Shown: positions 1 through 58,551 of the stretch, piece after piece
Layout: each line of letters starts with the position of its first letter
Numbering within the stretch: position 1 is the stretch's first letter
From: Candidatus Heimdallarchaeota archaeon
GTDB taxonomy: Archaea; Asgardarchaeota; Heimdallarchaeia; Hodarchaeales; Hodarchaeaceae
NCBI GenBank assembly: GCA_019057635.1
Contig: DXJL01000156.1
Span: 1 to 64,000, forward strand
Reading direction: 5' to 3'
DNA: 64,000 nt
Notes under the pieces: model-generated
What the model was told of the DNA's origin: nothing
What the model saw: only the letters and a program-made list of their open reading frames with translations
Databases searched by the model: none
Translations under genes and position numbers: made by a program

Positions 1-40
1 ATATGAAACACTTAATGGCTTTGATCCGAATAGATACATG

Positions 41-393
41 ATCTTTTTTGTCTTTTATGCCAATATTTCTCGTATTCGCTGACCGCTCTCTCTGACAATC
101 TCAAAAGTCCTCCCTCCCTTACTTCTTCAATCCCGAGGTGATGACAAAAAAATTTTTCTTAATTCTTAGGTCATATTTCCTTGTAACTACGTTAGACGAG
201 TTACCCGTCAAAGGCAAGAGAAGAATGGCCCAATCTGGTGGAAATTCATAAGTGTTTGGGAAATCGCAAGCAGATCTGATTCAAGTAGTCCCAATGGAAA
301 GCAAACATTCTCTTGTTGCTAACCTGCCAGATAGCGGTGTGTGACTCATCCTGTCCAGAACTATTTGCTAAATAGTTGTCTGACAAATATAGT
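41..393 (+). mobile_element. Non-autonomous, internally deleted (MITE-like) derivative of the TnpB element at 54330-55742
   Basis: Flanked by CATG at 37-40 and 394-397. 82-93 is an exact 12-mer match to revcomp 55650-55661. 183-215 matches revcomp 54946-54978 at 29/33. 282-397 closely matches revcomp 54326-54441. The segments are collinear. Confidence 0.85.
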
Positions 394-415
394 CATGAAG
401 ATTTTTCATAATCTT
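282..415 (+). ncRNA. Putative orphan omegaRNA (TnpB guide scaffold plus flanking guide)
   Basis: Homologous to the tnpB 3'-end/right-end region where omegaRNAs are encoded. The hairpin AACTATTT-GCT-AAATAGTT replaces AACTC-GTTTTCAA-GAGTT of the full element. Boundaries are approximate. Confidence 0.5.
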
Positions 416-53460: not shown

Positions 53461-54276
53461 TTACTTCCGTTTCTTCAATATTAAAGCATAATGGTGATGG
53501 ATATTGGAAACAAAACTATATGGATAGCCATACGGTCTCAAATTTTTCTGATTTTGTAACCAAATTCGTTCTCCCAAAAAGGAATACCATTTTGTTAGAC
53601 GTAGGGGGAGTTCGAAGGCGAGAGGTATCATTTCTCCCTTATCCCTGACATTTTGGATAAATACAATTAGATGGGCTTGGGGAAGTAATAGTTCATGAAT
53701 TTTAGTGAATATATCTACCAATTCATTTAGGAACTCTTCTTTTTCTTCTATCATTCCTAAATCAAGAGGATTTTGCCCATATTGGAGGTCGAGACCTTTT
53801 TCTAAGCGTTCTTGTTGATTATAATCTTTTTTTTTCTTTAATATTCGCCAATATGGAGGAGAGGTGATGCAAAGAGAAAAAGATTGTTTTTCTAAAGTGG
53901 GTAGAAGTATTCGGACATCACCTTCAAGAACAGGGAACTTTGTTCTAGATTTTGCAGTTTTAAAATACTTAGGATAAAGTTCTATACCGATACCCTTTCT
54001 TGCTGTGTTTTCACAGGCAACTAAAGTCGACCCTGTCCCCAAAAATGGATCTAGTACTATTTCACCAGGTTTCGTGAAAAATTCGATGAATTCTTCTATC
54101 ATAGAGGGAGGAAATGACGCAGGATGTAAATCAATCTCATGTGAAATGTCACTTGGTCTACCATCGGCTATAAACCAAGATTTTGTAAAACGAATCCACT
54201 CTTTCCCCGAGAGTGCGTTTAGCTTATTCCGAGGATCAATCTTTCCTGAATCTTTCATCACTATCCACTCTCTCAA
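53461..54276 (-). CDS. Alpha-class amino DNA methyltransferase (probably N4-cytosine)
   Basis: HPASFP; LDPFLGTGST precedes TSPPY. Confidence 0.88.
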   Translation of the reverse strand: MREWIVMKDSGKIDPRNKLNALSGKEWIRFTKSWFIADGRPSDISHEIDLHPASFPPSMIEEFIEFFTKPGEIVLDPFLGTGSTLVACENTARKGIGIELYPKYFKTAKSRTKFPVLEGDVRILLPTLEKQSFSLCITSPPYWRILKKKKDYNQQERLEKGLDLQYGQNPLDLGMIEEKEEFLNELVDIFTKIHELLLPQAHLIVFIQNVRDKGEMIPLAFELPLRLTKWYSFLGERIWLQNQKNLRPYGYPYSFVSNIHHHYALILKKRK

Positions 54277-54309
54277 TCCATTTTTCTAAGTTAAAAATAT
54301 ATAATAAAA

Positions 54310-54445
54310 AGGTACGGTGAGGAATCATGACTAAAATTGTCAGACAACTCTTGAAAACGAGTTCTGGACAGGATGAGTCACACATCCGCTATCCGGCAGG
54401 TTAGTAACACTAGAATGGATACTATCCGTTGGGACTACTTGGGAG
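54310..54445 (-). ncRNA. Putative omegaRNA overlapping the tnpB 3' end
   Basis: Canonical position for an omegaRNA. The sequence is conserved in the copy at 282-397 up to CATG and diverges immediately after, at the predicted scaffold/guide boundary. Boundaries are approximate. Confidence 0.65.
54330..54349. repeat. Right-end terminal inverted repeat
   Basis: ACTAAAATTGTCAGACAACT versus revcomp of 55723-55742, ATCAAATTTGTCAGAACACT. Confidence 0.7.
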
Positions 54446-55611
54446 TCTGTAGGATAACGTTGAAGAATATTCCGAGCCGCGTTATAATCGGCATTCAGAT
54501 GAACCCCGCACCTCTGACAACAAAAGGAACCTCGCGATGTTCGATTCCGCTTATCTACATGGCCACACTTACTACATTGTTGGGAGGTATACGCTTCGTC
54601 TACCCGTACTACGGTCATTCCAACAAGTTTAGCCTTGTATTCAAGCATTTGAACCAATTGGGAGAAGGGAAGTTGAATAAACGACTGATTTATCCGTTTT
54701 CCTAAGTTGCAGTGCTGTTTCCATCCCGCATTATAACCAATGACTAAGGTCTTTATCTTCTGCTCTAAACAGTAGTTGATTATTCGACGGGAGATTTGAT
54801 GGAAGATATCGTGGAGCTTATTAATCCGTCTACGATGTAGGCGTTGTATACGACGAGTAGTATACTGATGATTACAGATGGTGGCTAAGGATCGATAATG
54901 CGCAAGTTGCTTGTTATACCACTGATTAATGGTCTTAACTACCCCGCCTTTGACGAGTAAGCCGTCTGACGTAGTTACGAGATTGGTAAGACCGAGATCT
55001 ATTCCCATAGTTCGGGATGGAAAATCAGAGGAAGGAAATGGTTGCGCTTGTACTTCATAGAGTAATTCTACCACAAAGCGATCATAAAATGGCACTAACC
55101 GCGCCCCAACACATGCTTCCGCTGTCAATGGAAGAGAATCCAGGGGAAAGGTCGGAAACCCTCGTGCCATGAGATTTCGAGTAAATAGAATTTGGCTATT
55201 ACGGATTCGAACTCTGCGCCGGGGAAAGCTCAGCATATACATTCCGTTCTTGGGTTTATATCTAGGGGTTCGGGGGCGGGTTCGAAACCGGCCAGGATCC
55301 TTTTTCCAAACTTTCAGCGCGTTAAAAAAGCTGCGCCAAGTTTGTTCTACCTGTCGTAGGACCTGTTGGGGTAAATAGCTATCAGACATGTCTTTTAATG
55401 CTAGATACACTGGTTCGTGCTTGAGGCGATGATATAGGTTGGTATATTGGATCCATTTCCCTGTACTGAAAAATTCTTGTCGTACCTCATATGTCGCTCG
55501 ATTATAGAGATTTTTGGCACAGGTGCACAAATCGGTGAAAATTGGCCTAGGTTTCATTTGCATTCGGATAGCTAATTGGGGTTGAGGGTTTTTCTTGATA
55601 CGCATTCCCAT
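54340..55611 (-). CDS. tnpB: RNA-guided endonuclease TnpB with rearranged RuvC-II
   Basis: AKNLYN, QQVLR, RuvC-I GIDLG, LVIGYN, VDEAYTS, CSKCG..CQRCG, RuvC-III NADYNAARNI. Confidence 0.95.
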   Translation of the reverse strand: MGMRIKKNPQPQLAIRMQMKPRPIFTDLCTCAKNLYNRATYEVRQEFFSTGKWIQYTNLYHRLKHEPVYLALKDMSDSYLPQQVLRQVEQTWRSFFNALKVWKKDPGRFRTRPRTPRYKPKNGMYMLSFPRRRVRIRNSQILFTRNLMARGFPTFPLDSLPLTAEACVGARLVPFYDRFVVELLYEVQAQPFPSSDFPSRTMGIDLGLTNLVTTSDGLLVKGGVVKTINQWYNKQLAHYRSLATICNHQYTTRRIQRLHRRRINKLHDIFHQISRRIINYCLEQKIKTLVIGYNAGWKQHCNLGKRINQSFIQLPFSQLVQMLEYKAKLVGMTVVRVDEAYTSQQCSKCGHVDKRNRTSRGSFCCQRCGVHLNADYNAARNILQRYPTDSQVVPTDSIHSSVTNLPDSGCVTHPVQNSFSRVV

Positions 55612-55722
55612 TCCTTTTTGGAATTTTCACTCTTATAAACTTGAGACAAAGAGAGAGCGGTGAAATTGATGAATGTGATGAAATTGAACCCTTTTTCTTC
55701 CCGACCAGTACTGATAAAAACT

Positions 55723-55742
55723 AGTGTTCTGACAAATTTGAT
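55723..55742. repeat. Left-end terminal inverted repeat
   Basis: AGTGTTCTGACAAATTTGAT, immediately followed by CATG. Confidence 0.7.
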
Positions 55743-55743
55743 C

Positions 55744-56391
55744 ATGCCTAAGATTCAGTGTATCATATTCGATGTGGATGGGACATTACTTGACAATACA
55801 AATTTTATAGTATCCCTATTTCAGGATACTGTAATAAAATATCTTGGACCAGCAAAAAGTATGTCTAGGAATGAAGTTTTGTCATTATGGGGTCCACCTG
55901 GAGATGAAATCTTTAGAAAAGTATTTCCACCCGAGGTAGTTGACGAAGCTTGGTCAGAATTTCTCATTAAGTATCGTAACACTCATACAAAAACGGGTTT
56001 TTTTTCTCGTGTGGAATTGAATGACTTTCGGAAATATGTTCAATATCTAGTAATTTTTACTGGTAAATCGCGTTATACTAATACCATCTCTTTGGAAGAA
56101 TTGGATATTACTGATTGTTTCGACCTTATCTATACTGGAAGTGATGTGGAAAATTCAAAACCCCATCCTGATGCACTGTTCCTTATATTAGAAGATTTAG
56201 ATCTGAATCCGGATAAAGTAATCTTTATTGGGGATAGCCATCTTGATATCATTGCAGGAAAGGCTGCAGGTATTCCAACCGCTGGGGCCGAATGGGGAGC
56301 AGTTGAGTTGGAAAAGCTCCTCCAAAGCAAGCCTGATCATGTTTTTAAGACCCCAAATGACTTTATCAAGTTCATAGAAAGCGCTTCATGA
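55744..56391 (+). CDS. HAD-superfamily phosphatase (PpaX/Gph-like)
   Basis: FDVDGTL, TGK, KPHPD, IGDSHLD. The true start is ATG 55744, inside the CATG repeat. Confidence 0.9.
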   Translation: MPKIQCIIFDVDGTLLDNTNFIVSLFQDTVIKYLGPAKSMSRNEVLSLWGPPGDEIFRKVFPPEVVDEAWSEFLIKYRNTHTKTGFFSRVELNDFRKYVQYLVIFTGKSRYTNTISLEELDITDCFDLIYTGSDVENSKPHPDALFLILEDLDLNPDKVIFIGDSHLDIIAGKAAGIPTAGAEWGAVELEKLLQSKPDHVFKTPNDFIKFIESAS

Positions 56392-56406: not shown

Positions 56407-58551
56407 ATGACTAAAAAAATGATTGAAACCACTTTTCCAATCATTGAAATAAGTCAACTCGCCATACCTGAACGCAGCAGCTATAAACCTATTTATCAGA
56501 TTTCTAAATGGTTTGCCCGACGATCTTCGGCTATTTTTAGGGCCATTCTCCTTAGCTGTACTCTTAATTCATCAGAGAATTTCATGGACGAATTTTATAA
56601 TGCTAAGGATAGTTTCAAAGATATAACTATTCTTGATCCATTTATGGGAGGAGGAACAACAATTATAGAAGCTTTAAGGCTTGGTATGCAATGTATCGGA
56701 GTTGATATTAATCCAGTTGCATGGTTTATCACTAAAACTGAGAGTGCTATGGTCGATATAGAAGAACTTCAAGGTTTAATCACAAAATGTGAAGAAAACC
56801 TTGAAAATGATGTGAAAAAATGGTATAAAACCTCCTGTCCAGTATGTGAGAATCCCGCTGATATAATTTACACTCATTGGGTCAAATGCTTACCCTGTCC
56901 GACATGTAATTCACTCATCCCTATGTTTCGTAATTTTCTTGTCGGTTATTTGGCTAATGAGGCAATCCTTCTCTGTCCCTCATGTTATGCAGTATTTCCT
57001 TCAAATAAACCGATCACATCAGATAATAGATGTCCTGAATGTACTCAAAAATTCAAACCGAGTGCGGGTTTTAGAAAGGGTAGAAAATTGCTCGAATGTC
57101 CAGATTGTGGAAATTCTGTCAATATCTTAAACTCTATTCGTTCGATTAAGACTCCTCTCGCTTGCAAACCGTTTGCCATTGAAGGATATTGTTGTCACTG
57201 TGCAAATGAGAAAGATCCTGATTCAGACCTTGCAAAATCTAGATATAAATTTATCAAAAGAGTTTCACAAACAGACAGAGATCTTTATAAAAAGGCTGAA
57301 GATCACTGGAAGAATTATTCAGGCATCTTTCTTTGGCCAAAAGAAGATATCCCGATTGGCATGACAACAAAGGTTTTATTAAATCATAACTATACTAAAT
57401 GGGCTGACCTATTTACATACCGTCAATTATTAACTTTGAGTTTAATTTTAAACTTCATTAAAGACATTGAAGAAGAACATCTCCAAGAGATGTTTTTAGC
57501 GGCATTTCTAAACCTCTTAAATCACAACAATTCGTTTACAAGGTATTCTCCTAAAGGGCAAAAAGTCGAGGGGATATTTTCTCGCCATGATTTTCACCCT
57601 TTGTCTACATTTGCAGAAAATAATGTGTGGGGGACGAGATATGGACGTGGAACTTGGATCAAATGCCTCAAAAGATTACTAGAAGGGAAGAAGTACAACC
57701 TTGAACCCTATAATTTTACGTCTATAAATTCCAAAGAAAAGATCTCTAAGCGTCGAAGAATCGTATCTGGTAAAATTGATGGAAAAGTATACAATGGAGA
57801 AATTGAGCATTTTCCTGATGAAAAAAGTAATTTACTTCTTCTCTGTCAAGACTCTGAAAAACTTCCCTTGTTTACAAATGGCGTTGACCTTTTGATCTCT
57901 GATCCCCCGTATGCTGATAATGTAAATTATTCAGAACTATCTGATTTCTTATATGTTTGGATTCGATTAATATTACAGGAAAAATATCCCTTCTTTATTC
58001 CAGTTGAGACTCCAAAATTGGGAGAGGCAATTGAAACAAAAAATAGAGGTACTGATTACTATTCCAAACTCTTTAATATTTTTAGAAGCTGTAAGAAACA
58101 GCTCATCCCAGGTGGGTTGTTTGTATTTACATTTCATCATGGTAATCCTGATACTTGGTTTAAACTTGCTGAAGTAATTGAATCGTCTGGTTTTAGCGTG
58201 GTTAAAACGCATGTTTTGCAGAGTGAAGCCTTGAATGTTCTGAATATCCAAAATAAGAAAGCCGTGTCTTATGATTTAATTCTTGTCTGCCAGCAGAATC
58301 AACAAAAAAGGAAAAAACCCCATAATTTATCAGAATTTGTAGAACGGTTAAGCAAGAATTATGATAAGAAATTTACCTATTATACTGAGATAGGTCTCAC
58401 AATACATACAAATAATGTGATAGTTGTATTCTTTGGTGAATATTTGGAGCTTATTTCAAAGGTACAACCAGTAAACTGGTCAGACTCAATTGCTAAATCT
58501 GATCTAAGAAAAAGTTGTAAAGACCTTTACTCGAGTAAAATTATTGCCTGA
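56407..58551 (+). CDS. DUF1156/COG1743-type adenine DNA methyltransferase with multiple Zn ribbons
   Basis: KWFARR, DPFMGGGT, six CxxC pairs, SDPPYADNVNYSELSDF. Confidence 0.88.
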   Translation: MTKKMIETTFPIIEISQLAIPERSSYKPIYQISKWFARRSSAIFRAILLSCTLNSSENFMDEFYNAKDSFKDITILDPFMGGGTTIIEALRLGMQCIGVDINPVAWFITKTESAMVDIEELQGLITKCEENLENDVKKWYKTSCPVCENPADIIYTHWVKCLPCPTCNSLIPMFRNFLVGYLANEAILLCPSCYAVFPSNKPITSDNRCPECTQKFKPSAGFRKGRKLLECPDCGNSVNILNSIRSIKTPLACKPFAIEGYCCHCANEKDPDSDLAKSRYKFIKRVSQTDRDLYKKAEDHWKNYSGIFLWPKEDIPIGMTTKVLLNHNYTKWADLFTYRQLLTLSLILNFIKDIEEEHLQEMFLAAFLNLLNHNNSFTRYSPKGQKVEGIFSRHDFHPLSTFAENNVWGTRYGRGTWIKCLKRLLEGKKYNLEPYNFTSINSKEKISKRRRIVSGKIDGKVYNGEIEHFPDEKSNLLLLCQDSEKLPLFTNGVDLLISDPPYADNVNYSELSDFLYVWIRLILQEKYPFFIPVETPKLGEAIETKNRGTDYYSKLFNIFRSCKKQLIPGGLFVFTFHHGNPDTWFKLAEVIESSGFSVVKTHVLQSEALNVLNIQNKKAVSYDLILVCQQNQQKRKKPHNLSEFVERLSKNYDKKFTYYTEIGLTIHTNNVIVVFFGEYLELISKVQPVNWSDSIAKSDLRKSCKDLYSSKIIA

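Follow-up and report, generated by a model that had tools for sequence, protein, structure and literature searches.

We analysed a 64,000-nucleotide window of a Candidatus Heimdallarchaeota archaeon genome (G000:C133:1-64000; the G000 assembly has 3.19 Mb in 214 contigs and is 91.6% complete), which carries, at 54326..55746 on the minus strand, one copy of a multi-copy mobile element with tnpB as its only gene and with symmetric inverted ends that abut CATG tetramers. This is probably a non-autonomous insertion sequence (IS) encoding a TnpB nuclease and its guide RNA, together with gene-less derivatives of ~360 bp; its ends would be terminal inverted repeats (TIRs) acting as double-stranded DNA, its mobilising enzyme would come from elsewhere, and its TnpB would depend on the motif VCATG. 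Because no copy carries a transposase, mobilisation must occur in trans, by an enzyme encoded elsewhere, as an initial annotation of the window had also concluded.

Element anatomy and family-wide inverted ends

That annotation described tnpB alone between imperfect 20-bp inverted repeats and CATG on both sides, with the same boundaries in a miniature copy at 37-397, and the description holds. The whole element measures 1421 nt, its two bounding CATG tetramers included, and blastn matches of other copies end at the same boundaries; the tetramers lie at 54326-54329 and 55743-55746, and those of the mini copy at 37-40 and 394-397. Just inside the CATGs of the window copy, 15 of 20 nt match in inverted orientation when read by eye. 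In this single copy the terminal pair is not above chance: a repeat search of the 1.5 kb does not list it, while returning 9 other inverted pairs of 14-29 nt and 72-88% identity. We accept the inverted ends as real because they are conserved family-wide, not from a single copy. The pattern CATGNNNAAATTTGTCNGACAA, with at most 2 mismatches, has 65 matches in G000 and its reversed control none; among sister genomes it has 68 in G002, 28 in G020, 11 in G018 and 6 in G004, with 2 matches to the reversed control across all 22 genomes. Family ends occur in G002, G004, G011, G013, G018 and G020, and in most copies they read CATG-ATC-AAATTTGTCNGACAA on the left and TTGTCNGACAAATTT-AGT-CATG on the right.

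G000 has about 7 family copies of ~1.4 kb with tnpB as their only gene and about 18 of ~360 bp with no gene at all. A blastn search with the element gave 50 matches in this genome, among which 36 right ends and 7 left ends stop exactly at tetramers; the tetramer is CATG at 31/36 right ends, with T just before it in 34/36, and CATG precedes 6 of the 7 left ends. A motif scan found 19 left-right pairs, 14 with a spacing of 355-365 bp and 5 with one of 1336-1424 bp. Further afield, metagenome contigs with TnpB identity down to 57% carry the same ends. The 57%-identical relative keeps the outer 16 nt of the repeat in inverted form and has lost the inner palindrome half; the conserved feature is therefore a terminal inverted repeat and not a hairpin. 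Symmetric inverted ends of 22 nt place the layout outside both IS200/IS605 and IS607, again as first annotated.

Reading along the minus strand, the target-side tetramer at 55743..55746 is followed by the left repeat (55721..55742; family consensus ATCAAATTTGTCNGACAA, slightly degenerate in the window copy), a left non-coding region up to the tnpB start (55612..55720), part of which is retained in mini copies, and an open tnpB of 423 codons (54340..55611). The right repeat (54330..54351; family consensus TTGTCNGACAAATTTAGT) leads into the right-end tetramer at 54326..54329, which is preceded by T (TCATG) and would be the element-encoded counterpart of the TnpB recognition motif (TAM). The TAM itself is predicted to be the left-flank CATG plus its preceding base, here G at 55747. 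The mini copy (37..397, plus strand, 361 bp) has no gene and consists of the left end with a degenerate repeat, an internal hairpin module, a predicted scaffold at 282-397 and the right repeat.

The encoded protein matches Pfam OrfB_IS605 (PF01385, 6.6e-21) and Cas12f1-like_TNB (PF07282, 4.1e-25), as well as solved TnpB/Cas12f structures (best 3.3e-21; ISDra2 TnpB entries 8exa/8h1j at ~7e-11). It has the RuvC and zinc-ribbon TNB domains and the D-E-D triad of a TnpB/OMEGA nuclease, with RuvC motifs IDLG, DEAYTS and NADYNAARN as well as a CxxC...CxxC zinc finger of four cysteines. At RuvC-I it reads D-L-G, as is usual for TnpB, and not D-P-G, a signature that Yoon et al. 2023 (PMC10711439) link to Fanzors. 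Close TnpB relatives in public genome and metagenome contigs are all solo and, where a contig holds both ends, they are bounded by the same repeats. Such relatives occur in Candidatus Hodarchaeota and Heimdallarchaeota archaeon B3_Heim, in agreement with the Asgard host first suggested. The nearest TnpA-linked relative is an IS607-type tnpB at G000:C54, with 38% identity over 387 residues.

One internal segment of tnpB is kept in the mini copies as a hairpin module. The 52 nt at 54930..54981 (minus strand; element query 766-817) code for ...LVTTSDGLLVKGG..., the stretch just after the RuvC-I aspartate, and are almost unchanged in both mini-copy subfamilies, the matching piece of the window mini copy lying near 170-215. 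The segment forms a hairpin whose outer stem covaries, and an inverted pair flanks it. Metagenome contig depth peaks at 54892-54975, comparably to the peak at the right end. The segment may act as another RNA module, as a binding site or as a promoter.

We also observed 33-bp units in which a left end is fused to a right end through a shared 11-nt core: (i) in G000 at C84:3071-3103, C104:23050-23082 and C152:1633-1665, and (ii) in G002 at C8:64499-64531, C35:1462-1494 and C50:11147-11179. They are either repeat-mediated core deletions or minimal mobile units. Contig G000:C182:1-402 repeats window positions 1-400 with the same flanks, as a strain variant or through assembly redundancy, and the left repeat of its mini copy is intact, unlike the degenerate one of the window mini copy.

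Insertion sites, flanks and the predicted guide RNA

Related genome assemblies were compared for element-free alleles, as the initial annotation had proposed, and they bear directly on what the target contributes. Within the same sample, one contig of run X1 passes directly from 54323 to 55741, leaving out 1417 nt (1421 minus 4), and therefore an element-free allele with a single CATG coexists there; six letters at the joint (ATCATG) are ambiguous, and the contig has a depth of 8.3, compared with 5-6 for contigs that hold the element. G002, whose flanks at the compared loci match those of G000 at 95-97% identity, provided filled/empty pairs. In 9/9 loci with both flanks aligned, the empty allele has one tetramer and the filled allele two. 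The empty-allele tetramer is CATG for the window copy and for L323, L327 and L337, TATG at C69, L325 and L330, CATA at L334 (where the flank has diverged) and CTTA at C31. Copies at C150 and C70 are filled in both genomes, and at C82 the genomes G020, G004 and G018 were too diverged for the comparison.

The initial annotation took the CATGs for direct repeats, that is, a 4-bp duplication of the target, and this part does not stand. At three loci the paired flanking tetramers differ: C69 reads ...gttc TATG [element] CATG ttttt... when filled and TATG when empty; G002:C44 reads gtttg TATG [element] CATG gaatt when filled and gtttg TATG gaatt when empty; and C31 reads CATG [element] CATA when filled, with an empty allele that ends in A. 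Hence there is no 4-bp target-site duplication (TSD), which would leave a pair of identical variant tetramers. In all three, the target itself supplies the variant outer base, and the other junction has the element's canonical inner base. For C65 one flank could be compared, and there too the other genome has the A that ends CATA. Among all G000 ends, 10 variants affect the outermost base only (TATG or GATG, reading inward) and 2 the innermost base only. At most the central bases of the tetramer are thus shared between element and target, and the junction data fit a central AT exchange and, equally, a one-sided cut after YAT. As a separate observation, genomes seem often to differ by a C-to-T change in the outer base of CATG.

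The flanks themselves are strongly asymmetric. We pooled 35 left flanks from G000 with 40 from G002, G020, G004 and G018, giving 74 unique ones. Immediately before the left tetramer these have 35 A, 28 C, 10 G and a single T, whereas T precedes CATG at 37.5% of 16,852 genome sites. At the mirrored right-flank position T occurs in 24/45, and the remaining positions of the pooled flanks show no clear bias. In the window and mini copies the base before the left CATG is G or A, and T precedes CATG inside both right ends. A one-sided rule on near-identical ends cannot come from a symmetric enzyme alone, and something therefore reads the left flank and CATG directionally. The bias fits a TAM of VCATG, with which TnpB would spare the occupied site, reading TCATG. 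We regard this as the simplest account; the element's own right end reads T-CATG, and T is nearly absent on the left. It would follow the logic of TAM and transposon-encoded motif (TEM) shown for IS605 elements (Meers et al., preprint 10.1101/2023.03.14.532601). The CATG-containing TAM that avoids TCATG, predicted at first annotation, finds strong support in the flank counts; its narrower form RCATG does not, given the many flanks with C.

The last 116 nt of the element (54441-54326) are common to all full and mini copies, and the adjoining flank is variable. We infer a guide-RNA (omegaRNA) scaffold of ~116 nt at 54326..54441 on the minus strand, which would overlap the 3' end of tnpB and span the right repeat and CATG; by the TnpB paradigm (PMC8612924; PMC10711439), the first 20 nt of the right flank (54306..54325, minus strand) would serve as the guide. 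When 29 right ends are folded to a consensus, two stems show covariation, with 3-4 pair types at each position of the stem-loop that immediately precedes the repeat. Alignments read by eye likewise show an upstream hairpin whose sequence changes between subfamilies while its self-complementarity stays. The fold pairs GUGACU with AGUCAU, UGUC with GACA and AGA with UCU, so that the right repeat and CAT are drawn into the predicted scaffold. Rfam gave no match for the scaffold. Repeats and target-derived bases lie inside the guide-RNA scaffold of Fanzors as well, and the fixed flank base of IS607 TnpBs is placed likewise, according to PMC10711439.

The mobilising enzyme and competing explanations

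Taken together, these data suggest the following cycle. The ends would be genuine double-strand TIRs of ~22 nt, with the outer 16 nt most conserved, and neither IS605 hairpins nor the asymmetric ends of IS607. Insertion would occur at palindromic CATG, with YATR tolerated, the outer base of each flanking tetramer coming from the target and the central AT being at most shared or duplicated. Such AT sharing would resemble what a serine recombinase does in a 2-bp crossover, or a cut with a 2-bp stagger by a DDE enzyme; with a crossover, right and left ends would on joining make a ~40-bp palindrome centred on AT. The right repeat and CATG would form the 3' part of the guide-RNA scaffold, with the adjoining right flank as guide, and TnpB would cut the vacated site beside VCATG while ignoring the occupied TCATG site. 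Only insertions with a non-T left flank would then be re-copied after loss, and hence persist.

For the enzyme, repeat-bounded units were scanned in G000 and no family copy was found to hold a second gene. The search for an autonomous copy with the TIR consensus, also proposed at first annotation, covered the whole of G000 by repeat-pair scans (22 nt with at most 4 mismatches; 16 nt with at most 2) and found none, yielding only units of 355-365 bp and 1336-1424 bp plus chance pairs. Cas1 (PF01867) has no match in G000, G002, G004, G011, G018 and G020 and one partial match in G013; IS630-type DDE transposases (DDE_3) are absent from all five carrier genomes searched. DDE_Tnp_1 genes number 3 in G000, 15 in G002 and 5 in G020, with none in G018 or G004. 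Three DDE_Tnp_1 IS families whose ends could be defined by copy comparison have ends unrelated to this family; the remaining DDE_Tnp_1 loci, whose ends were not defined, showed no inverted repeats or family motif in scans. Two IS607-type serine recombinases are encoded in G000, each beside other tnpB genes, in elements with the recombinase followed by tnpB (C54:5876-7584, L031; C56:27316-29282, L032); the C54 recombinase has an N-terminal helix-turn-helix, and the C56 protein only the Pfam Resolvase domain. With the queries used, IS607-type TnpA was not found in G002, G004, G011, G018 or G020. Of 177 loci examined by tblastn, 2 gave serine TnpA-like and 4 Y1-like matches, all beside bacterial homologues of 29-34% identity.

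Three candidate loci proved to be something else: (i) a DDE_Tnp_1 gene directly upstream of a right end on C22 belongs to one of the three IS families just mentioned, a separate IS that has ends of its own, CAGTCTTCACG..., and lies inside a mini copy (419-aa type, L257, G000:C22:23762-24660); (ii) a 2.6-kb unit in G002:C8 and G000:C160 holds a gene for an M48 peptidase, with a left-end remnant on one side and a 33-bp remnant on the other; and (iii) a 2.27-kb repeat beside the remnant on C104 is a duplicated pair of membrane-transporter-like genes, as judged from its open reading frames.

Several points weigh against the proposed cycle. No enzyme with matching ends turned up in G000, in G002 (93% complete) or in 80 metagenome loci, and an IMG/VR scan for the repeat pattern gave 0 matches. 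The junctions are also compatible with a one-sided cut after YAT and an element ending in CAT, by an IS605-like logic, and the left-flank bias could stem from the mobilising enzyme instead of TnpB. In the scaffold, the helix that contains the repeat is invariant, so that covariation gives it no support. The informative loci are few and all from close kin, and some fit poorly: the L325 empty allele is TATG where both filled junctions are CATG, which needs a point mutation under any model, as does TATG at G002:C85 against CATG at G000:C83, beside a 1.2-kb indel; two empty alleles (CTTA at C31, ATTA at C65) differ at further positions.

We favour an enzyme that recognises double-stranded inverted ends. 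Exchange of the serine-recombinase type and a cut of the DDE type appear about equally likely, and either is more likely than a Y1 transposase. More tentatively, the mover might be a TnpB partner of a kind not yet linked to TnpB, neither Y1 nor IS607-type as known nor from a DDE family detectable here, which exchanges only the central AT between symmetric 22-bp ends while VCATG selects which of the two possible orientations survives; we regard this as possible but not likely.

Peel-and-paste transposition of the IS200/IS605 type, in which a Y1 (HUH) TnpA encoded elsewhere would act on single-stranded DNA and insert 3' of V-YAT, the repeats being near-terminal palindromes similar to those of IS1341-type elements and PATEs of haloarchaea, would yield the left-flank rule directly, since a strand-specific enzyme following the TAM/TEM logic of the Meers et al. 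preprint would read T-CAT at the element's own end as the transposon-encoded motif. Cutting after YAT at each end agrees with the junctions, TTGTCNGACAA at the core of the repeat is palindromic, and the 33-bp left-plus-right remnants mirror 52-bp core deletions in Haloquadratum (PMC3119063). We nevertheless consider it rather unlikely. Y1_Tnp (PF01797) has 0 matches in G000, G002, G004, G011 and G020, i.e. in 5/7 carrier genomes, and the Y1 genes of G013 and G018 adjoin a different, 27%-identical tnpB. The single-stranded fold of the left end is weak (mean -3.5 kcal/mol, z -0.66, n=25). The palindrome is a 5-bp stem with a 1-nt loop, and its inner half is dispensed with in the 57%-identical relative. 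Hairpins leave the inverted repetition of the outermost 11 nt unexplained, and the bases 5' of the right-end palindrome, where IS608-type elements have a DNA guide, vary between copies.

It is very unlikely that the copies are immobile fossils whose flank pattern and conservation are left over from an extinct system. Identity among full copies is only 70-81%, several copies have stop codons, and the mobilising enzyme escaped the searches above, all as a fossil family would predict; against this, four tnpB reading frames are open and mini copies are 85-94% alike. G000 and G002 also differ by insertions despite their close identity in the flanks (at least 6 G002 mini copies lie at sites empty in G000, and 2 G000 copies at sites empty in G002), and polymorphism exists within one sample too. 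Least credible to us is a cut-and-paste DDE transposon with a 4-bp CATG TSD. It would account for the symmetric TIRs, for CATG on both sides of most copies and for a single divergent copy with TATG on both sides (C31:55324-56688), and TIRs occur in all six DDE-associated TnpB branches described in PMC10691335. Yet the tetramers differ at 3/3 informative variant loci, with only outer bases matching the empty allele, and no DDE gene lies within any repeat-bounded unit.

Beside one of the compared loci, the mini copy at G002:C85:15982-16343 faces a 1.2-kb stretch in G000 (C83:20433-21637) with a putative membrane-transporter gene (by eye), which suggests a deletion next to the element in G002.

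Relation to known TnpB elements and genomic neighbourhood

The initial annotation regarded TIR transposons carrying TnpB relatives as a speciality of eukaryotic Fanzors; that view is outdated, as prokaryotic cases are given by Altae-Tran et al. 2023 PNAS (PMC10691335). The branches DDE-1 to DDE-6 of that study, for example the IS630-linked one, all have inverted terminal repeats, and it describes solo TnpBs that share ends with autonomous relatives, as well as Cas1-linked TnpBs in Asgard archaea. Its DDE-associated and solo elements resemble ours in their symmetric inverted ends, in a tnpB 3' end at most 250 bp from the transposon end, and in the presumed trans-mobilisation of solo copies. Ours differs in having no DDE gene with these ends, and in its target, CATG with a shared centre as opposed to TA; from the Cas1-linked Asgard transposons described there it differs in having no Cas1 beside tnpB. 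As TIR TnpB transposons, solo copies moved in trans and gene-less guide-RNA copies are already in print, the present finding refines the picture and does not overturn it. New in detail are the sharing of no more than the centre of the target tetramer and the strong one-sided flank rule that predicts the TAM. Literature searches found no description of this family; the supplementary end lists of PMC10691335 lay outside that search.

Elements of the IS607 type have one and the same dinucleotide at both ends and in the target, a rule given by Chen et al. 2018 (eLife, PMC6188088). They share with this family a short sequence at junctions and target (GG there, AT of CATG here), a 2-bp crossover without true duplication, and, according to PMC10711439, fixed flank bases absorbed into the guide-RNA scaffold, the last two being proposed for our element; the IS607 ends, however, are mutually unrelated, with direct-repeat motifs, in contrast to 22-nt inverted repeats. 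A second tnpB-only family in G000 (1662 bp, 430-aa TnpB, copies 85-87% alike at C104:14209-15871, C139:3638-5298 and C152:3625-5286) has asymmetric IS607-like ends with repeated GGACA motifs and GG on both sides, and so the family studied here is really laid out differently.

In haloarchaea, Dyall-Smith et al. 2011 (PMC3119063) describe tnpB-only elements, the so-called PATEs and 52-bp core deletions between end palindromes. These IS1341-type elements and PATEs, like those of Geobacillus (Meers et al. 2023), resemble our family in combining tnpB-only copies with gene-less derivatives that keep the ends and part of the guide RNA, in inserting beside a 4-5-nt motif, and in leaving terminal-only remnants (33 bp here, 52 bp there). 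As described in those sources, they are without TIRs and need a Y1 TnpA and real hairpins; our family has inverted repeats in its outermost 11-16 nt, a marginal hairpin and no Y1 gene in G000. Fanzor1 and Fanzor2* (Bao and Jurka 2013, PMC3627910; PMC10711439) likewise place a TnpB-family nuclease on a non-autonomous TIR transposon, with repeat and target-derived bases in the guide-RNA scaffold, as predicted here. According to these sources, Fanzors are eukaryotic, with D-P-G and TIR/TSD transposons, whereas our element has an archaeal host, D-L-G and no real TSD.

The family places TnpB outside the Y1 and IS607 layouts, on symmetric inverted-repeat elements, in Hodarchaeales too. It offers a natural example in which the target motif, self-avoidance and guide boundary of a TnpB may be read from insertion sites alone, and the repeat and target bases appear to be built into the predicted guide RNA as in eukaryotic Fanzors. 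A palindromic, non-T-rich predicted TAM on a 423-aa archaeal nuclease would be of interest for compact genome editors. The transposase is a concrete and findable missing piece; should it prove to be the new kind of partner enzyme considered above, the family would be an archaeal counterpart of the Fanzor TIR transposons, in an order often placed closest to eukaryotes.

The window copy sits exactly at the start of a HAD-family hydrolase gene (55744-56391, plus strand; HAD_2, 3.6e-36), whose start codon is the ATG of the left-flank CATG, and it parts this gene from its upstream region; start codons will often coincide with CATG targets. Close to the insertion are two genes for N6_N4_Mtase DNA methylases, one adjoining the right end (53461-54276, minus strand; 3e-25) and the other just downstream of the HAD gene (56407-58551, plus strand; 2.2e-14). 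The 714-aa N6_N4_Mtase protein has an additional weak match to DUF1156, below the cut-off.

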